From a virus (Duplodnaviria; Heunggongvirae; Uroviricota; Caudoviricetes): a DNA stretch of 24,687 nucleotides. The notes beneath the pieces were generated by a model that was not told where the DNA came from, searched no databases, and was given only the letters and a program-made list of their open reading frames with translations. Of the stretch, positions 1,169 to 23,782 are shown piece by piece. The stretch is taken from the IMG/VR virus record IMGVR_UViG_2711768042_000001, positions 1 through 24,687 of that record; one strand, written 5' to 3'. How positions within the stretch are numbered: the stretch's first letter is position 1; each line of letters begins with the position of its first letter. The position numbers were made by a program, and so were the translations under genes.

Positions 1169-1843
1169 TTGAATACTGCCGCCAACTATGGCGGCTTTAT
1201 TTTGCATGATACTATTACCACAACGGTAACTATTACCACGGTGGTTATGATGCCTGCTGAACCTAAAGCCTATAAACGCAAATCAACGCAATTTAAGCCA
1301 CTAACAGCAATGCAGGAGGCTTATTGCCAGTCATACATCAAAACGCCTGAAAACCAGACTCAGGCAGCGATTAATGCAGGATTCTCCCCAAATACAGCGG
1401 CAGTTAAAGCCAGTGTCATGATGCGCGATGAACGCATTCAAAAACGGATTGCCGAGTTGATGGAGGAGCGCAACAAACGAATGCGCGTCAGTGCTGATTA
1501 CGTTCTCATGCGCCTGGTGGAGATCGACCAGATGGACGTGATCGACATCCTCAACGACGATGGGAGCCTTAAGCCAATCCGCGAGTGGCCGAAAATCTGG
1601 CGCACTACGCTTAGCGGCTTTGATCTGTCATCGACCATCATGAACATGAACGAGGATTCGATAGAGACAATCCTCAAAAAAATTAAATGGCCTGACAAGG
1701 TGAAGAACCTCGAACTGATTGGTAAGCACGTCGACGTCAACGCATTCAAAGAACGCCTGGATGTTAATGTGAATGTGACAATTGCTGATCGCATAGCAGC
1801 AGCCAGGAAGCGACTCAAAGAACGTCAGGATGGTAATCAGTGA
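1169..1843 (+). CDS. terminase small subunit (Terminase_2/P27-like)
   Basis: Sits immediately upstream of the large terminase with overlapping stop/start; region AMQEAYCQSYIKTPENQTQAAINAGFSPNTAAVKASVMMRDERIQKRIAEL resembles small-terminase DNA-binding domains. True start may be ATG 1247 (MMPAEPK). Confidence 0.6.
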   Translation: MNTAANYGGFILHDTITTTVTITTVVMMPAEPKAYKRKSTQFKPLTAMQEAYCQSYIKTPENQTQAAINAGFSPNTAAVKASVMMRDERIQKRIAELMEERNKRMRVSADYVLMRLVEIDQMDVIDILNDDGSLKPIREWPKIWRTTLSGFDLSSTIMNMNEDSIETILKKIKWPDKVKNLELIGKHVDVNAFKERLDVNVNVTIADRIAAARKRLKERQDGNQ

Positions 1844-3315
1844 CAGATACAGTGTTATCTCCTGAAGAGCAGTTGATCGAGGATATTGCAGGGTTTACTC
1901 ACGATCCGCTTGGTTATGCCCTCTATGCGTTCCCGTGGGGGGAAGAGGGGACTGAACTGGCACATGCTACTGGCCCACGTCAGTGGCAGGCTGATGCGTT
2001 CCGAGAGATACGTGATCACCTGCAGAATCCAGAGACGCGCTATCAGCCGCTTATGCTGGCACGCGCTTCTGGTCACGGTATTGGTAAATCCGCATTCATC
2101 TCAATGCTGATCAACTGGGGCATGTCCACTTGCGAGGATTGTAAGGTCGTGGTGACCGCCAACACCGACAACCAGCTACGAACGAAGACCTGGCCGGAAA
2201 TTATCAAGTGGTCGAACCTTGCTATCACGAAAGACTGGTTTACCTGTACCGCTACCGCGATGTACAGCAATGATCCTGGACACGACAAGCGGTGGCGAGC
2301 TGACGCAATCCCCTGGTCTGAGCACAACACTGAGGCATTCGCCGGACTACACAACGAGCGCAAACGCATCATCGTGGTGTTTGATGAAGCGTCGAACATT
2401 GCGGATCTGGTGTGGGAAGTTGCCGAAGGTGCGCTAACGGACGAAGACACTGAGATTATCTGGGTGGCGTTCGGAAACCCGACGCGTAATACCGGACGTT
2501 TCCGTGAATGTTTCCGCAAGTATAAACACCGCTGGAAAACTGCGCAGATTGACAGTCGGACGGTGGAAGGTACCAACAAACAGCAGTTGCAGAAATGGGT
2601 TGATGACTACGGGGAAGACAGCGACTTCGTTAAAATCCGTGTGCGTGGCATATTCCCTGATGCATCTGAATTGCAGTTTATCCCTACCGGTCTTACTGAC
2701 GAGGCAATGAAACGGGTGGTAACCGCTGCGCAGGTTGCACATGCTCCGGTGATAATCGGCGTTGACCCGGCATACTCCGGCGTTGATGACGCTGTGATAT
2801 ACCTGCGGCAGGGGCTACACAGTAAGGTGCTGTGGACTGGCAACAAGACTACCGACGATCTGATTATGGCGAAGCGTATCGCTGACTTTGAAGACCAGTA
2901 TCAGGCTGACGCGGTGTTCATCGACTTCGGTTACGGAACCGGTTTGAAGTCAATCGGTGACGGCTGGGGTCGTACATGGCAACTTGTTCCGTTCGGTGGC
3001 GCGTCTACTGACCCGCAGATGCTTAACAAGCGTGGGGAGATGTTCAACTCATGCAAGACATGGCTGAGGCTCGGCGGCATGCTGGATGACCGGGAAACAG
3101 CGGACGACCTGTCGACGGCAGAGTACAAAGTTCGCGTGGACGGTAAAATCGTTATCGAACCGAAGGAAGATATCAAAGAGCGACTTGGGCGTTCGCCGGG
3201 GAAAGGCGATGCGCTATTGCTGACGTTTGCTTTCCCGGTCTCGAAACGCATAAATATACCAGGACAGCAGAACCAGCAAGGCAAGGCCATCACAGATTAC
3301 GATCCCTATGCTTAA
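1840..3315 (+). CDS. terminase large subunit
   Basis: GTG start at 1840 overlaps terS stop (GTGA). 491 aa with P-loop-like ASGHGIGKSAF and Walker B-like IIVVFDEASNI; size and position typical of TerL. Confidence 0.85.
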   Translation: MTDTVLSPEEQLIEDIAGFTHDPLGYALYAFPWGEEGTELAHATGPRQWQADAFREIRDHLQNPETRYQPLMLARASGHGIGKSAFISMLINWGMSTCEDCKVVVTANTDNQLRTKTWPEIIKWSNLAITKDWFTCTATAMYSNDPGHDKRWRADAIPWSEHNTEAFAGLHNERKRIIVVFDEASNIADLVWEVAEGALTDEDTEIIWVAFGNPTRNTGRFRECFRKYKHRWKTAQIDSRTVEGTNKQQLQKWVDDYGEDSDFVKIRVRGIFPDASELQFIPTGLTDEAMKRVVTAAQVAHAPVIIGVDPAYSGVDDAVIYLRQGLHSKVLWTGNKTTDDLIMAKRIADFEDQYQADAVFIDFGYGTGLKSIGDGWGRTWQLVPFGGASTDPQMLNKRGEMFNSCKTWLRLGGMLDDRETADDLSTAEYKVRVDGKIVIEPKEDIKERLGRSPGKGDALLLTFAFPVSKRINIPGQQNQQGKAITDYDPYA

Positions 3316-3351
3316 TCCGCTAGTGGGGATAATGTCGTTGATATCCTCTGA

Positions 3352-3385
3352 TGAGGATAAAACAAAGCCAGCTCATCGGCTGGCT
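3352..3385 (-). terminator. intrinsic terminator for the minus-strand moron (hairpin AGCCAGC/GCTGGCT plus T-run on minus strand)
   Basis: 7-bp stem at 3366-3372/3379-3385 with 6-nt loop; minus-strand reading continues TTTGTTTTAT. Only a weak T-run on the plus side. Confidence 0.5.
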
Positions 3386-3389
3386 GTTT

Positions 3390-3401
3390 GTGACATGTCA
3401 C
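3390..3401. repeat. 12-bp perfect palindrome GTGACATGTCAC, copy 2 of 3
   Basis: Exact string between the terL stop region and the moron stop. Confidence 0.9.
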
Positions 3402-3405
3402 GGTG

Positions 3406-3825
3406 TTACTTAATGGCATCAAATCCAGCGTTGATGGCTTCCACAATATTGATGGCACTTGTTTTATCGAAGTGCCCATTCTGAATAAGCGCCGCATGCA
3501 GGCATTGTAACTTCATGTTGTATAAGTGTTCGCTCATGTAATCATTATCACTTTTTGCTTTAGCGTAAACAGCGCGAGAAATATCAAACACATCGCCTTT
3601 TTCCATTTCAGAACGTTGTGCTGTTATCCAGTCATGGAATGTAACGCTAGTACCATGGTCTTCGCTAAGAGTTAACCCGGCCAGTCCCTCACTCTGAATT
3701 ACTTCGTAATGCATTTCATTACCAGCAAAAACGCCATAAAAAACGCAGTCTTCAGCCTGAACGATACGAGAATATTTTAATGGCCATTCATTTAGATACT
3801 TAGCCAACATATCAATTGTTTTCAT
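3406..3825 (-). CDS. moron: hypothetical acidic cytoplasmic protein (139 aa)
   Basis: Only credible ORF on the minus strand here; ATG at 3825 preceded on the minus strand by AAGGTGAGA; bracketed by hairpin/T-run elements on both sides; opposite orientation to the structural genes. Confidence 0.6.
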   Translation of the reverse strand: MKTIDMLAKYLNEWPLKYSRIVQAEDCVFYGVFAGNEMHYEVIQSEGLAGLTLSEDHGTSVTFHDWITAQRSEMEKGDVFDISRAVYAKAKSDNDYMSEHLYNMKLQCLHAALIQNGHFDKTSAINIVEAINAGFDAIK

Positions 3826-3834
3826 GATCTCACC

Positions 3835-3860
3835 TTAAAAAAATGCCCGGCGACCCGGGC
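3835..3860 (-). terminator. terminator-like hairpin (GCCCGG-GTCG-CCGGGC followed by TTTTTTT on minus strand) just upstream of the moron RBS
   Basis: Plus-strand 3845-3860 GCCCGGCGACCCGGGC preceded by AAAAAAA; on the minus strand this is a GC stem followed by a U-run, lying between the tRNA and the moron. Confidence 0.5.
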
Positions 3861-4023
3861 GAACTGGAAGCAATGAGTTATGCCTTCCGTGGCTGTACTG
3901 GTTTACAGCATGAAGTCATCGCAATGGCGTCCTGCTGTAAAAAGGGCGGTAATAGTCCTTCAAGGGAAACTATCACCGCCAAGCACCTGGAACTTCTGGC
4001 ATCACGGTCCTTAGGCGTGATTC

Positions 4024-4100
4024 TGGCGTGGCATGCAGGATTCGAACCTGCGACCAACCGCTTAGAAGGCGGTTGCTCTGTCCAACTGAGCTAATGCCAC
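4024..4100 (-). tRNA. tRNA-Arg (anticodon UCU, decodes AGA), phage-encoded
   Basis: Reverse complement folds as a canonical cloverleaf: acceptor GTGGCAT/ATGCCAC, D-arm GCTC-AGTTGGACA-GAGC, anticodon arm ACCGC-CTTCTAA-GCGGT (anticodon TCT), T-arm GCAGG-TTCGAATC-CTGC, discriminator G and encoded CCA. Differs from E. coli argU as I recall it (from memory, not a comparison). Confidence 0.9.
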
Positions 4101-4422
4101 AACGCTGAGAGCACTTAGCCTGTTAAGGCGCCACACTTTGTCGCGGCTCCATAAATGCTCTCATCGTTGTACCCTCGTCTCTTCCGAGGCGTCACACCGA
4201 ATCGCCGGGATGGTGAATCCCCGTGCGCGGAATAAAACCGCTCGACTTGCACATTCCGGCTACCTGGTTCGTTTGCCCGAGCAAGGGAGGGTGCCCCTTA
4301 AACGTATCCAGACCGCTATCGGCGCATGTGCCATACGCCGTACTGCTCAAAATAAAAGCTCACTCCACCTGTTCAATTTAACGACAAGCCAGTCAGGTTA
4401 ATAACCGGAATGAACCATTTTC

Positions 4423-4437
4423 TTACCTGAAAGGTAA
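4423..4437. promoter_or_regulatory. palindromic motif TTACC-TGAAA-GGTAA (candidate operator), site 1 of 6
   Basis: Exact string; same motif class recurs at 20015, 20601, 22348 (imperfect), 23388, 23768, always intergenic. Confidence 0.4.
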
Positions 4438-4527
4438 TAATTAGTGCGTTAAATGTCAACTATCTACGATAAATAAATCATATGTGGTTAAATTGGTAAT
4501 AATTTAATTTCGTACGGAGTCATTGAT

Positions 4528-4734
4528 ATGTGCATGGGTAGCTCACCGTCAGTGCCTGCAACACCAGAAGTTCAGGCAGCACCACAGGAGCAGGATGCCG
4601 CCGTTGTTGATGCCCGCGACGAAGAAACTCGTCGCCGTCGCGCTGCTGCTGGTCGTAGTTCTACGCTGCTTACCGGTTCTCAGGGTGACACATCAACCGC
4701 TAATACCAGCGGTAAAACGCTGCTTGGTCAGTAA
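4528..4734 (+). CDS. hypothetical small protein (68 aa), low-complexity Ala/Thr/Ser/Gln-rich
   Basis: Start context CGGAGTCATTGATATG is nearly identical to the portal start context CGGAGTCATTGAAATG 220 nt downstream; sits directly upstream of the portal on the same strand. Confidence 0.4.
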   Translation: MCMGSSPSVPATPEVQAAPQEQDAAVVDARDEETRRRRAAAGRSSTLLTGSQGDTSTANTSGKTLLGQ

Positions 4735-4748
4735 CCGGAGTCATTGAA

Positions 4749-6428
4749 ATGGCGGAAACAACTAAAGAGCGATTGAACAAACAGTTCGCACAACTTGAAA
4801 GCGAGCGTCAGTCGTTCGAGCCGCACTGGCGCGAGTTGAGTGATTACATCAACCCGCGTGGTTCCCGCTTTCTGACTTCTGAGGTTAACCGTAACGATCG
4901 ACGCAATACACGCATTATTGATTCGACCGGGACTATGGCGGCGCGCACTCTTGCCAGCGGCATGATGTCAGGCATAACAAGCCCCGCCCGTCCGTGGTTT
5001 CGCCTGGCTACGCCAGATCCTGAAATGATGGACTATGGCCCTGTTAAGTTGTGGCTTGAGGCAGTTCAGAACCGCATGAACGATATGTTCAATAAGTCGA
5101 ATCTCTACCAGTCTCTTCCGCAGTTATACGGAAGCCTCGGCACATACAGCACTGGTGCAATGGCGGTGCTGGAGGATGACGAGGACATCATTCGCACAAT
5201 GCCATTCCCGATAGGCAGTTACTACCTGGCTAACTCACCTCGTGGCAGTGTGGACACCTGTTTTCGCAAGTTCTCTATGACTGTTCGTCAGCTTGTTCAG
5301 GAGTTCGGGCTAAATAACGTCAGCGAATCCGTAAAAAGCATGTGGGAAAGCGGCACCTACGAGAAGTGGATTGAAGTGATGCATTCGGTTTACCCGAACA
5401 TTGACCGCGATACATCGAAGCTGGATAGCAAGAACAAGCCATTCAAATCGGTTTATTACGAGGTTGGTGGCGATAACGACAAGTTGTTGCGTGAGTCCGG
5501 ATTCGATGAGTTTCCAATTATGGCTCCGCGCTGGGAAGTTAACGGCGAAGATGTTTATGGATCATCATGCCCGGGTATGCTGGCGCTTGGACCTGTTAAG
5601 GCATTGCAGCTTCTCCAGAAGCGCAAGTCGCAGTTGATTGATAAAGCCACCAATCCGCCGATGATTGCTCCGACTTCCCTCAAGAATCAGCGCGCCTCCC
5701 TTCTTCCTGGCGACATCACGTATATCGATCAGATTACTGGTCAGGATGGTTTCAGGCCTGCTTATCTGGTTAACCCCAGTACAGCAGATCTGGTGGCAGA
5801 CATTCAGGACACTCGTCAAATCATTAACAGTGCCTACTTTGTCGATCTGTTCATGATGTTGCAGAACATCAATACCCGTTCGATGCCTGTTGAAGCGGTG
5901 ATCGAAATGAAAGAAGAAAAACTTCTGATGTTGGGGCCGGTTCTGGAGCGTCTGAACGACGAATGTCTTAATCCTCTCATTGACCGCGCTTTCTCGATGA
6001 TGGTGCGTAAAAACATGCTGCCGCCCCCGCCTGACGCGATGGAAGGTATGCCCCTGAAGGTCGAATACATTTCCGTCATGGCTCAGGCGCAGAAGTCTAT
6101 CGGCCTGTCCAGTCTGGCGTCCACGGTTAACTTCATTGGTCAACTTGCGCAAGCGAAACCAGAAGCTCTCGACAAACTCAACGTTGATCAGGCAATCGAT
6201 GCATTCGCTGATATGTCCGGAGTGTCTCCAACCGTCATTGTTCCGCAGGAACAGGTTGAGCAGGCTCGCCAGCAACGGGCACAGCAGCAACAGCAGCAAC
6301 AAATGATGGCGATGGGGATGGCGGCGGCACAGGGTGCCAAGACGCTAAGCGAAGCTAAAACTTCGGATCCGAGTGTTTTGTCAGCTATGGCGAATGCAGT
6401 TAGTGGTCAGGGTGGGCAATCACAATGA
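4749..6428 (+). CDS. portal (head-to-tail connector) protein, T7 gp8-like
   Basis: 559 aa, follows terminase; Gln/Ala/Met-rich C-terminus (QQRAQQQQQQQMMAMGMAAAQGAKT...) resembles the characteristic C-terminus of T7-type connector proteins; RBS GGAG upstream. Confidence 0.8.
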   Translation: MAETTKERLNKQFAQLESERQSFEPHWRELSDYINPRGSRFLTSEVNRNDRRNTRIIDSTGTMAARTLASGMMSGITSPARPWFRLATPDPEMMDYGPVKLWLEAVQNRMNDMFNKSNLYQSLPQLYGSLGTYSTGAMAVLEDDEDIIRTMPFPIGSYYLANSPRGSVDTCFRKFSMTVRQLVQEFGLNNVSESVKSMWESGTYEKWIEVMHSVYPNIDRDTSKLDSKNKPFKSVYYEVGGDNDKLLRESGFDEFPIMAPRWEVNGEDVYGSSCPGMLALGPVKALQLLQKRKSQLIDKATNPPMIAPTSLKNQRASLLPGDITYIDQITGQDGFRPAYLVNPSTADLVADIQDTRQIINSAYFVDLFMMLQNINTRSMPVEAVIEMKEEKLLMLGPVLERLNDECLNPLIDRAFSMMVRKNMLPPPPDAMEGMPLKVEYISVMAQAQKSIGLSSLASTVNFIGQLAQAKPEALDKLNVDQAIDAFADMSGVSPTVIVPQEQVEQARQQRAQQQQQQQMMAMGMAAAQGAKTLSEAKTSDPSVLSAMANAVSGQGGQSQ

Positions 6429-20014: not shown

Positions 20015-20029
20015 TTACCTTAAAGGTAA
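20015..20029. promoter_or_regulatory. palindromic motif TTACC-TTAAA-GGTAA, site 2 of 6
   Basis: Exact string 20-35 nt upstream of the 19994 start on the minus strand. Confidence 0.4.
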
Positions 20030-20054: not shown

Positions 20055-20453
20055 TTAAGTGTATACCTCCTGTTGCTCAGTGGTGATTTTACCCGGCAAC
20101 ACCTTTTTAGCTTTGTGCGGGTTAACCACATGGCCTTTAGTCCAGTACTCGTAGAGCACATCGTCACACTCTTCCTGATACTGGATTACCTTGTCGCGGA
20201 TTTCAGGGCGGACTTTGTTAGGGCTGATGCTGTTCAACCAAGCTGCCAATTTTCGTAAAGCCATACAAATCATGGCTTGCACCCCACCGGCAGAAGGTAT
20301 GGTGATTTCCACCATACCCTTCGAGAAGCGTTGAGAAATCTTCTTATGTTGAGATTTCCAGTCTAGCCCCATTCCCTCAACGATAGGTTTCATTGGGGTA
20401 TACGGTTCGCCGTTGTGATTGACAACATAAAGCTCTGCGCCGTGGAATGGCAC
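20055..20453 (-). CDS. antirepressor N-terminal-domain-like protein (P22_AR_N-like), possibly truncated
   Basis: N-terminus FHGAELYVVNHNGEPYTPMKPIVEGMGLDWKSQ...VIQYQEECDDVLYEYWTKG has the style of P22-antirepressor N-domains (from memory). Starts with GTG, no clear SD, only 132 aa, so may be a remnant. Confidence 0.45.
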   Translation of the reverse strand: MPFHGAELYVVNHNGEPYTPMKPIVEGMGLDWKSQHKKISQRFSKGMVEITIPSAGGVQAMICMALRKLAAWLNSISPNKVRPEIRDKVIQYQEECDDVLYEYWTKGHVVNPHKAKKVLPGKITTEQQEVYT

Positions 20454-20590: not shown

Positions 20591-20886
20591 GCGCTTATCA
20601 TTACCTTTGCGGTAAATTTACATTGCATTCCTCTTGTGCCATAGTAATCGGGCACTGGCAAAATCCAGTGTCGGGATTGGTCTCCCGGATTACTAAGTGG
20701 CGCATACCACGCCAGACGTGGTTTTTTTATGCGTATAGCACAGTCATGCCAGAATTATGGTGGGCTGAATGGGGGTCCGAAAGGACGCCGGTACCACTTA
20801 GGCCGGTAAGACCAACTCCGTTCAGTTCACCACCATCTGATTGGTCTCAGCGGTGGTGATGTAATTCGCTAAGTGGAGACGCCATC
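20591..20886 (+). promoter_or_regulatory. structured ~295-nt leader upstream of the AntA-like gene (copy 1 of an inverted pair)
   Basis: About 85-90 percent identical to the reverse complement of 23122-23412; contains TTACC-TTTGC-GGTAA (20601-20615), two stem-loops, an intrinsic terminator, then complementary sites AGACCAA (20809-20815) and TTGGTCT (20841-20847) before the RBS GGAG. Confidence 0.7.
20651..20727 (+). ncRNA. candidate C4-like antisense sRNA, copy 1 (SL1 CACUGG-CAAAAU-CCAGUG; SL2 CGGGA-UUGGUC-UCCCG; terminator CCACG-CCAGA-CGUGG then U7)
   Basis: Three consecutive hairpins ending in a U-run, about 77 nt; SL2 loop UUGGUCU is complementary to AGACCAA in the downstream leader. 5' end not determined. 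Confidence 0.45.
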
Positions 20887-21543
20887 ATGAACGCTCAACT
20901 CATCCCCGTATTCAACGGCACTATATCTAACGAAACAGCCCTACTTTGTAATGCCCGCGATCTGCACGCTTTTTTAGGTGTTAAAAAGGTGTTTGCAGCA
21001 TGGATTACAAATCGCATTTCAGAATACGAATTCATTGAAAATCAAGACTATATTTTGCTTTCCAATTTGGGAAAGCAAACATCTGGTAGAGGCGGCCACA
21101 ACCGCAAAGAGTACCACCTCACCCTTGATACAGCCAAAGAGCTGGCGATGGTCGAGCGTAACGAAAAAGGTCGCCAGATACGACGCTACTTCATTGAATG
21201 CGAGAAACGTTTAAGACAACAAGAAACAAAGGTGGAGAAGGTCTTGTCAGGCTTCATGCCAGCCATTATGGAGGCGATCAAGCTGGAAGACAAAAAAGAA
21301 TACAGCGCCCAACTGAAGCCCGGCTACCGCAGCCTGATTCATTCGCCGTCTGGTGTTCTCGGCCTGACGGAGAACTCACTGCTGATGAATTTGCTGAACC
21401 AGTTACAGGAAGACGGGCATGATGTATCGGGCGCGGCAGCGGAGCTGACCACCATGTTCTGCTACATCGTCGGTGTGAGCAAATGCCTGCGTGATATCCA
21501 GACGCACGCGGAGTACATCAACGACAAGGCAGGGTTCTTCTGA
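20887..21543 (+). CDS. antirepressor, AntA-type N-domain plus shared C-terminal domain
   Basis: ATG with GGAG 8 nt upstream; N-domain ...[16 protein letters not shown]...[30 protein letters not shown] matches the AntA pattern; the C-terminal 80 aa are near-identical to the C-terminus of the 22435..23121 gene. Confidence 0.75.
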
Positions 21544-21580: not shown

Positions 21581-21592
21581 GTGACATGTCAC
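21581..21592. repeat. 12-bp perfect palindrome GTGACATGTCAC, copy 3 of 3
   Basis: Exact string between the antA stop and its terminator. Confidence 0.9.
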
Positions 21593-22409: not shown

Positions 22410-22677
22410 AGGCACATCCCTGTGCCGCCGCCCGTCAGAAGACCCCTGCCTTGTCGTTGATGTATTCCGCGTGGGTCTGGATATCACGCAGGCATTTACT
22501 CACACCGACGATGTAGCAGAACATGGTGGTCAGTTCCGCCGCCGCGCCCGATACGTCGTGCCCGTCTTCCTGTAACTGGTTCAGCAGATTCATCAGCAGT
22601 GAGTTCTCCGTCAGGCCGAGAACACCAGACGGCGAATGAATCAGGCTGCGGTAGCCGAGCTTCAGTGGGGCGCTGTA
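22410..22677. repeat. inverted repeat arm B (antirepressor C-domain coding plus 3' flank)
   Basis: Reverse complement about 94 percent identical to 21301-21568. Confidence 0.8.
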
Positions 22678-23121
22678 GGTTTTGTTCTCTACCTTCATTG
22701 CCTGCATCACTGCTGATGCTGTGGCGCTGGCTACCTGGTCGGCAACCATCTTTATGCGTTCTTCCTGCGGGAGCGAGTTTTTAATGTAACTTCCGGTGCG
22801 GCGGATCTGAGGAAGAACCTCACCTGTAACCCATTTACGAAAGCGGTAGGGGGTAGTGCCTGGTGTCACCGCATCGCGGCAGCGGAGGATCAGTGTGTAG
22901 AGGCCTGACTCGTTGATAATATTGGTTTCGCCTTGACGGCCTAAGTTAAATTTAGCCCTTTCATCATCATCAAGAGATTTTATTGACATAGTGGGGTTTG
23001 TCAGTTGAAGAGCTTTAATAACGTCTTTGGCAACAAACCAAGGATTTCCATCAATAACAATGGCTCGAATGGTTGCTTCTGATTCAAAATGAAAAACAGA
23101 TGGGGTTACGTTAGCAGTCAT
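22435..23121 (-). CDS. antirepressor, Bro-N-type N-domain plus shared C-terminal domain
   Basis: ATG 23121 with AGGTGAT upstream (track ORF extends to 23274 but that N-terminal extension overlaps the conserved leader). Bro-N pattern: IDGNPWFVAKDVIKAL...NESGLYTLILRCR...YRFRKWVTGEVLPQIRRTGSY. Confidence 0.75.
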   Translation of the reverse strand: MTANVTPSVFHFESEATIRAIVIDGNPWFVAKDVIKALQLTNPTMSIKSLDDDERAKFNLGRQGETNIINESGLYTLILRCRDAVTPGTTPYRFRKWVTGEVLPQIRRTGSYIKNSLPQEERIKMVADQVASATASAVMQAMKVENKTYSAPLKLGYRSLIHSPSGVLGLTENSLLMNLLNQLQEDGHDVSGAAAELTTMFCYIVGVSKCLRDIQTHAEYINDKAGVF

Positions 23122-23274
23122 AGCGATCACCTTTGTAGTTAGGTTAATCACCACTACCGACGCCAATCGGTTGGTGGTGAACTGTGCAGGGTTGGCGTAA
23201 CCGGCTACAAAGGACCCGGCGCACCTTTCGGTGCCCCCACACAGCCCACCATAGAATAGGTGCGCTTTACACAT

Positions 23275-23387: not shown

Positions 23388-23402
23388 TTACCGCAAAGGT
23401 AA
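23388..23402. promoter_or_regulatory. palindromic motif TTACC-GCAAA-GGTAA, site 5 of 6
   Basis: Exact string at the upstream end of leader copy 2, mirroring 20601-20615 in copy 1. Confidence 0.4.
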
Positions 23403-23767: not shown

Positions 23768-23782
23768 TTACCTGAAAGGTAA
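23768..23782. promoter_or_regulatory. palindromic motif TTACC-TGAAA-GGTAA, site 6 of 6
   Basis: Exact string, identical core to site 1 (4423-4437). Confidence 0.4.

Follow-up and report, generated by a model that had tools for sequence, protein, structure and literature searches.

We consider a small gene in a stretch of phage DNA of 24,687 nucleotides, positions 1 to 24,687 of IMG/VR record IMGVR_UViG_2711768042_000001, which we call the window. The window is a phage or prophage of Escherichia belonging to Uetakevirus, that is, to the relatives of epsilon15 and phiV10. The gene, taken from a list of open reading frames (ORFs), occupies 3406-3825 on the minus strand; it encodes 139 amino acids of the family PHROG 4846, starts with ATG and has its stop codon at 3406-3408. 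It lies between the gene for the large terminase, TerL (1840-3315, plus strand), and the gp3-like gene and the portal gene (4528-6428, plus strand). Around the ORF the window shares 95% identity with Escherichia phage HEMP4, 91% with vB_EcoP_PAS61 and, the ORF itself excepted, 98% with phiV10. The GC content of the ORF is 39.8%, compared with 53.5% for TerL and 51.4% for the portal gene, and its Shine-Dalgarno sequence, AAGGTGAG at 3836-3829, is rated good.

An earlier note on this DNA, made from the letters alone, had described the ORF as an acidic, soluble protein of 139 residues, placed opposite in strand to all its neighbours and flanked on both sides by a hairpin with a U-run. The reading frame exists as described, and so do both hairpins (3860-3845 and 3385-3366, each with its T-run on the minus strand). 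The protein genes on either side are indeed plus-strand genes; the statement about strands fails for a transfer RNA (tRNA) gene, tRNA-Arg with anticodon UCU (4024-4100, minus strand; found by ARAGORN, and by the Rfam tRNA model at 73 bits), which lies upstream of the ORF and shares its strand. Since the ORF is one of several genes that occupy the same site in related phages, we refer to it as the cargo ORF.

Conservation and selection

The cargo ORF is a real gene and a conserved piece of cargo. Its product matches PHROG 4846, a family of unknown function, from end to end (E = 7.3e-89; residues 1-139 against profile positions 1-139 of 140). A word-indexed search finds 101 homologues in Escherichia, Salmonella, Citrobacter, Klebsiella, Leclercia and Cronobacter, and a profile search with the N-terminal domain (domain A, below) adds Enterobacter to these host genera. 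Full length is maintained in at least six genera at 29-96% identity, and the family is confined to phages and prophages. The identical 139-residue protein is present on 81 contigs; related DNA occurs in 117 of 5426 complete E. coli genomes, and is chromosomal every time. The median pairwise ratio of nonsynonymous to synonymous substitution rates (dN/dS) in the N-terminal domain equals 0.18, a value from which we conclude that the ORF is under purifying selection.

The family is narrow, since an exhaustive hidden Markov model search of 1.84 billion cluster representatives recovers just 27 representatives, all of them from this one narrow family. When 50,697 phage records are searched with tblastn, domain A is found in HEMP4 and PAS61 only, while the C-terminal part (module X, below) is found in Enterobacter phages Tyrion and BUCT554 as well.

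The 139-residue protein has no match in Pfam (E up to 10) or NCBIfam, and matches 0 families among the PADLOC defence-protein profiles (E up to 1). Searches of the PDB sequences return nothing meaningful, whether the profile is built from the whole family or from domain A; the sole match is an ankyrin fragment (E = 0.22). In the literature on the accession, the PHROG, the carrier phages, and Uetakevirus together with anti-defence, we found no characterisation of the protein.

A slot for exchangeable genes

In order to compare the site across close relatives, we took from IMG/VR 80 loci with a large terminase that matches the window's at 98% identity or more, and classified the 77 loci that contain both terminase and portal. 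A member of PF13876, the Acb4 family, is present at 38 of the 77, and a member of the PHROG 4846 family at 17, at one of them in tandem with another cargo. About 8 loci contain PHROG 4780 (246-282 residues), 5 contain PHROG 27507 (110 residues; one of these in tandem with PHROG 4846), 4 contain PHROG 3163 (115 residues), 2 contain module X alone, 1 contains an orphan of 99 residues, and the remaining 4 are empty. The reference phages phiV10 and epsilon15 have a PF13876 gene (PhiV10p03 and epsilon15p50, respectively) at the same position, on the same strand and between the same flanks. Distant members of the PHROG 4846 family in prophages of Citrobacter, Enterobacter and Cronobacter are located in this slot too. 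Thus the conservation in related prophages that the earlier note had named as a possible point of failure is found, both in the 17 loci and in these other genera.

The exchange is precise. Between the window and loci with other cargos, homology breaks off at 3402-3408 and returns at 3820-3825. Since these positions are the stop and start codons, the exchange of cargo is exact to the coding sequence. At the empty loci (L036, L037, L049 and L065) about 24-28 nucleotides stand in place of the ORF, both flanks are retained, and a mini-ORF of 8 codons is left between them.

The 5' flank (3826-3860, minus strand) is common to all cargo types, and consists of a hairpin, GCCCGG-GTCG-CCGGGC at 3860-3845, a run of seven T at 3843-3837, and the Shine-Dalgarno sequence at 3836-3829. 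The hairpin has a fold z-score of -2.3 against shuffled sequence, and its stem differs among phages by compensatory changes: GCCCGG/CCGGGC in E. coli, GCCCAC/GTGGGC in epsilon15, and GCCCGC/GCGGGC in Cronobacter. The hairpin and its T-run have the form of a canonical intrinsic terminator on the strand of the ORF, and not that of a promoter; because the stem is preserved by compensatory changes, we take the terminator to be functional. Only 1 nucleotide separates the end of this terminator from the Shine-Dalgarno sequence, and 34 nucleotides separate its hairpin from the ATG.

The 3' flank contains a second terminator hairpin (3366-3385), placed between the convergent TerL and cargo genes, with a good T-run on the minus strand and a weaker one on the plus strand. 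Its fold z-score is -2.65, and it is annotated as a terminator in phiV10. With the palindrome described next, this terminator makes up the conserved 3' flank of the cassette, which all cargo types share, and homology to phiV10 and others extends through it as far as 3402-3408. Between the hairpin and the ORF, 5 nucleotides past the cargo stop codon, lies a palindrome of 12 base pairs, GTGACATGTCAC (3390-3401). Exact copies are found three times in the window, at 1125-1136, 3390-3401 and 21581-21592, compared with 0.08 expected. Each copy marks the 3' end of a gene block, and the palindrome follows other cargos as well; it could be a site of recombination or of protein binding.

One locus carries two cassettes. 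At L066 (5567-6490) a PHROG 27507 gene and a PHROG 4846 gene are stacked, each preceded by its own module of hairpin, seven-T run and ribosome-binding site, and a remnant of GTGACATGTCAC remains between them. The stack shows that a cassette unit may be gained by duplication or addition, besides being replaced.

The other occupants of the slot differ in character. The PHROG 4780 proteins (L023, L038, L053 and others) have N-terminal hydrophobic segments followed by a long coiled coil; the PHROG 3163 proteins (L014, L029, L030 and L072) contain repetitive 'SGDV' motifs rich in Gly, Asn and Val. Together with PHROG 27507 (L017, L018, L022, L027 and L066) and the 99-residue orphan (L055), we regard them as candidates for defence or anti-defence genes.

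Domains of the encoded protein

The cargo protein is short, soluble and modular, and it has no enzymatic motif. It is acidic, as had been claimed, if mildly so (isoelectric point 5.09), and the maximum Kyte-Doolittle mean over 19 residues is 0.52, so that no segment resembles a membrane span. The quality of the structural model depends upon the alignment: with a shallow alignment AlphaFold2 performs poorly, with a predicted local distance difference test score (pLDDT) of 60, and with more divergent homologues (alignment A3) the mean pLDDT rises to 83. The model describes the protein as a monomer.

The N-terminal domain A (residues 1-75; 3601-3825) is supported by a pLDDT of about 90 and by conserved columns in the alignment. 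Its predicted order of elements is helix, three strands, short strand, helix, and its conserved residues are W14, P15, R20, Q23, F29, G31, G50, D56, G58, T62 and W66. It is followed by a variable linker of low confidence (residues 76-92; 3550-3600), whose pLDDT falls below 50 at residues 82-87; the linker is predicted to be disordered, and its length and sequence differ across the family. Module X (residues 93-139; 3409-3549) is a predicted helical hairpin, with helices at 93-116 and 121-137 and the motif KLQCL...INAGFDAI. All three segments are, like the ORF, on the minus strand. A Foldseek search of the model against BFVD matches unnamed phage proteins only. Structure prediction and remote homology, which the earlier note had proposed as checks, have in this case yielded a confident model for domain A and no family of known function.

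These parts occur in several combinations. Module X is found as a stand-alone protein of about 61 residues (for example, at L026), behind a different N-terminal domain, module B, in proteins of 123 residues (P0090-P0098), with a C-terminal extension of about 60 residues, module Y, in proteins of 201-204 residues, and in further architectures (P0112-P0125). Domain A, conversely, is also found without module X. The stand-alone short forms have the same hairpin and ribosome-binding module in front of them, and they recur as a separate class of protein.

Relation to signal sponges

The commonest occupant of the slot belongs to a family of known activity. PF13876 is the Acb4 family of phage sponges, which sequester the cyclic-nucleotide signals of the cyclic-oligonucleotide-based anti-phage signalling system (CBASS); all 8 of the 8 Acb4 homologues tested bound 3'3'-cyclic GMP-AMP (3'3'-cGAMP) (bioRxiv 10.1101/2024.12.30.630793). 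A second family, PF11195 (DUF2829), is Tad2, a sponge of Thoeris signals, and sponges are often fused to one another: Sequestin was found through its fusions to Tad2 and Acb4 (Tal et al., bioRxiv 10.1101/2025.07.12.664507). The slot gene of phiV10, phiV10p03, matches the solved Acb4 structure 9e4w. A search with phiV10p03 also returns a protein of 196 residues (P0200) that contains PF21825 and PF13876, with an Acb4 part 72% identical to phiV10p03; natural sponge-sponge fusions thus exist in this very lineage of Acb4.

Tad2 is present in the slot as well, in two forms. In E. coli ECSC054 and PD23 a stand-alone Tad2 of 98 residues occupies the same slot between identical flanks. In E. coli PF9285 the slot encodes a protein of 168 residues: its residues 1-73 correspond to domain A of the window protein, at 99.5% DNA identity, and an entire Tad2 domain (Pfam E = 1.2e-23) follows in the same reading frame. 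The two parts meet at the edge of domain A, where there is a shared 'SE' dipeptide. The exact 168-residue protein is found on 7 contigs of a single lineage, and the fusion has thus been propagated. Two traits that Tal et al. (2025) describe for immune-signal sponges are accordingly seen here: the window protein, at 139 residues, is a short (<200 residues), phage-encoded protein of unknown function, and its domain A is fused to a known sponge, Tad2, in one lineage. Sponges are further described there as homo-oligomers whose subunit interfaces form positively charged pockets.

It is useful to set the cargo protein beside each of these sponges in turn. In phiV10, epsilon15 and roughly half of the close relatives, Acb4 sits in exactly its slot, on its strand and between its flanks; Acb4 is of similar size (112-126 residues) and isoelectric point (about 5.1), and the order of elements predicted for domain A is similar in the model. 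Unlike the cargo protein, Acb4 has no counterpart of the C-terminal helical hairpin, and the two have no similarity in sequence or profile. Acb4 itself has a dsRBD-like alpha-beta-beta-beta-alpha fold and binds 3'3'-cGAMP as a homotetramer. Tad2 shares the slot in some E. coli prophages and is fused to domain A in the one lineage; the window protein, however, has no Tad2 domain (it does not match the PF11195 profile), so that the link consists of position and fusion only. Sequestin (PF21825) is a short helical sponge, and module X, which forms a helical hairpin (about 47-61 residues) and is also found on its own, is like it in this respect; with the family studied here it shares the logic of its discovery, in that it came to light as the fusion partner of known sponges. 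When six fragments of the family's sequence are set against entries from the supplementary tables of Tal et al. (tested candidates, and detected homologues of Sequestin, Lockin and Acb5), none is among the entries so compared.

Transcription of the cargo

Morons of lambdoid phages, in the definition of Juhala and Hendrix, include lambda bor and lom and HK97 gene 15. The cargo ORF, which the earlier note had called a moron, resembles them in being an extra gene between genes that are adjacent in relatives, in its foreign base composition, and in having its own terminator. It differs from them in that it has no promoter of its own and a terminator in front, and is probably controlled by the repressor rather than expressed from the prophage. 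The description of the locus as a classic moron layout cannot be upheld: the upstream hairpin is by all appearances a terminator on the same strand, and a scan of 3000-4900 for sigma-70-like promoters returns 0 sites, hence none between the upstream hairpin and the ATG.

A promoter-like element can be read directly from the sequence further upstream (4423-4459, minus strand), with a perfect -35 box TTGACA at 4459-4454, a spacer of 17 nucleotides, and a -10 box TACCTT at 4436-4431. It is the only such element present, it reads toward the tRNA and the cargo, and it lies about 630 nucleotides upstream of the ORF. A weak candidate promoter between the two upstream terminators, TGTAAA...CATAAC, was ruled out, as it is deleted in gene-carrying loci such as L011. 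The palindrome TTACCTGAAAGGTAA (4423-4437) overlaps the -10 box, which lies within it, and the same arrangement of promoter-like element and palindrome is found in epsilon15 and in a Cronobacter prophage.

The form of this palindrome, TTACC-N5-GGTAA, occurs six times in the window, compared with 0 expected: at 1215-1229, 4423-4437, 20015-20029, 20601-20615, 23388-23402 and 23768-23782. Copies precede the small terminase gene and the gp3/portal operon, and others are found around genes whose products have domains of antirepressor type (P22_AR_N at 20055-20453, AntA at 20887-21543 and Bro-N at 22435-23274). The same sequence is annotated as a repressor site in the epsilon15 record, and in phiV10 it stands on both sides of the repressor gene p40. 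Because of these two observations, TTACC-N5-GGTAA is most likely the operator of the prophage repressor. If so, then the packaging and head operons would be under direct control of the repressor. Since the probable operator overlaps the only promoter-like element, the arrangement suggests that the cargo is repressed in lysogens. Expression in the lysogen, which the earlier note had drawn from the layout, runs contrary to this arrangement.

Between the promoter-like element and the tRNA lies a structured, GC-rich leader of 315 nucleotides (4101-4415, minus strand; minimum free energy -118.7 kcal/mol, z = -2.9). The part at about 4306-4388 is kept in epsilon15, which is without the tRNA. An Rfam search of the leader finds no family; it could be an element for processing or antitermination. 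Downstream of the tRNA there is a terminator-like hairpin with a stem of 14 base pairs (3945-3980, minus strand; fold z-score -3.3), after which comes the terminator of the cassette. We infer a minus-strand unit composed of promoter, leader, tRNA-Arg, terminator, terminator and cargo, which would be silent in lysogens and turned on upon infection or induction.

Interpretation

Our preferred interpretation is that the ORF is a counter-defence gene, carried as cargo in a cassette-like exchange slot of epsilon15/phiV10-type prophages; we assign this a probability of roughly 0.45. Given its position in the slot and the fusion to Tad2, the PHROG 4846 protein is a candidate anti-defence protein. Among the functions that the earlier note had left side by side (immunity, anti-defence or fitness), anti-defence is the best supported, by Acb4 and Tad2 as slot-mates and by the Tad2 fusion. 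Related phages would swap alternative small genes by recombination in the conserved flanks; the slot would mainly carry counter-defence genes, and the two-domain protein would act as an inhibitor of a host anti-phage system. Upon infection or induction the repressor would leave the operator at 4423-4437, the minus-strand promoter would fire, and from lytic onset transcripts would extend across the leader and the tRNA-Arg gene and past two attenuating terminators, so as to reach the cargo. Its product may then associate with itself through its C-terminal helical hairpin, and the N-terminal domain may bind an immune component of the host or an immune signalling molecule. Sequestration of a signal is the leading but unproven sub-hypothesis for its mechanism.

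Several observations weigh against a counter-defence role. The 139-residue protein has no homology in sequence or profile to known anti-defence proteins (Pfam, PADLOC, HHalign), and no clear one in fold. Neither domain A nor the whole protein is detectably an Acb4 by sequence (HHalign probability 0.2% and 0.1%, respectively; no PF13876 match), and module X is not detectably a Sequestin (0.4% against 15 Sequestins; no PF21825 match). The protein is acidic overall, at an isoelectric point of 5.09. The Tad2 fusion is a single lineage, and it is possibly a tolerated by-product of recombination at the 'SE' microhomology. Nor is the slot exclusively anti-defence, since it also holds the membrane and coiled-coil proteins of PHROG 4780 and other cargos that are possibly defence or exclusion genes. 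Finally, two same-strand terminators before the ORF fit poorly with the high expression that a stoichiometric sponge needs, and passage through them is the weakest step in the expression logic.

A hotspot for anti-defence and accessory genes in a temperate phage is of a known kind. In the literature that we searched there is no description of the protein family, of the modular mini-domains that make it up or of a cassette that begins with a terminator. Phage anti-immunity proteins are now found mainly through clues of fusion and neighbourhood, and PHROG 4846 is such a candidate in E. coli. The slot amounts to a compact natural library, with at least eight alternative cargos in phages whose structural genes are near-identical, and the conserved terminator directly before the ribosome-binding site of every cargo raises a question of gene timing. 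If the role were confirmed, the family would help to explain differences in host range among temperate E. coli phages, including the phiV10-type phages of O157 and other Shiga toxin-producing E. coli (STEC), which are used for typing and biocontrol.

One might go further, and suppose that PHROG 4846 founds a new anti-immunity family of shuffling mini-domains (A or B, X, and optionally Y), with the Uetakevirus slot as a dedicated, derepression-dependent site for counter-defence cassettes. We consider this stronger proposal rather unlikely as a whole. Under it, the cassette unit would comprise the terminator hairpin, the T7 run, the ribosome-binding site, the coding sequence and the GTGACATGTCAC palindrome; such units would be exchanged or stacked, as at L066, and would be on only in the absence of the repressor, possibly by antitermination through the structured leader.

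The moron-like position of the gene, its foreign GC content and its own downstream terminator would also be expected of a conversion gene, made by the prophage in the lysogen in order to protect or benefit the host, for instance as a superinfection-exclusion or fitness factor. Such a gene would be kept in many E. coli lysogens, as this one is (117 of 5426 genomes), and the PHROG 4780 cargos in or beside the slot resemble exclusion or abortive-infection proteins. We nevertheless judge it unlikely that the ORF is a conversion gene. There is no promoter adjacent to the ORF, a same-strand terminator ends 1 nucleotide before its ribosome-binding site, and a probable repressor operator overlaps the sole promoter-like element. 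Moreover, the protein has no match in PADLOC, and the slot-mates that can be identified, Acb4 and Tad2, serve the phage against host immunity.

No better in our estimation is the proposal that the protein is a lytic accessory factor unconnected with immunity, for instance one that modulates host metabolism, transcription or DNA packaging, and that happens to share a recombination-prone slot. The slot does lie between packaging and head genes, several of its cargos have no link to immunity, and in another podovirus a distant relative that carries module X (P0097) is encoded on the structural strand, with a scaffold-like gene on one side and the capsid gene on the other. The gene is dispensable, however, as is evident from the empty slots and the many alternative cargos found despite near-identical structural genes. 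Polymorphism for presence and absence, combined with domain shuffling, is typical of arms-race genes, and the Tad2 fusion likewise speaks against a role outside immunity.

That the ORF is non-functional or decaying, or an artefact of intergenic annotation, is effectively refuted by the data on conservation and selection: its function is unassigned and two loci (L026 and L067) hold only short remnants, but the median dN/dS of 0.18, the full length kept in at least six genera at 29-96% identity, the confident AlphaFold2 domain and the proper ribosome-binding site all contradict it, and the short forms themselves share the hairpin and ribosome-binding module and recur as a protein class of their own.

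Other features of the window and its relatives

Across six large structural and packaging genes of the window, 29 of the 244 arginine codons are AGA, and the cargo ORF contains no AGA and no AGG codons. A weak DicF-like Rfam match at 3944-3991 (E = 0.63) was dismissed, as it falls far short of the gathering score. On the plus strand, an ORF of 83 codons (3843-4094), which corresponds to the annotated PhiV10p04, is most likely not a gene, because it would be read antisense to the tRNA-Arg gene and to both terminator hairpins.

Module Y, whose motif is ...PLIKWL..N.HPH.SVI...ELL.G....TEE.L.D (PHROGs 16206 and 4621), is found in P0012, P0069, P0108, P0101 and P0121; in P0121 it directly follows domain A, with no module X between them. 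A relative of 190 residues at L093 (5001-5573) consists of a Cys-rich N-terminus, module B and module X. It is encoded on the structural strand between the scaffold-like and major capsid genes of an unrelated, podovirus-like element, and by this position beside a capsid gene elsewhere it indicates that module X is not restricted to the Uetakevirus slot.

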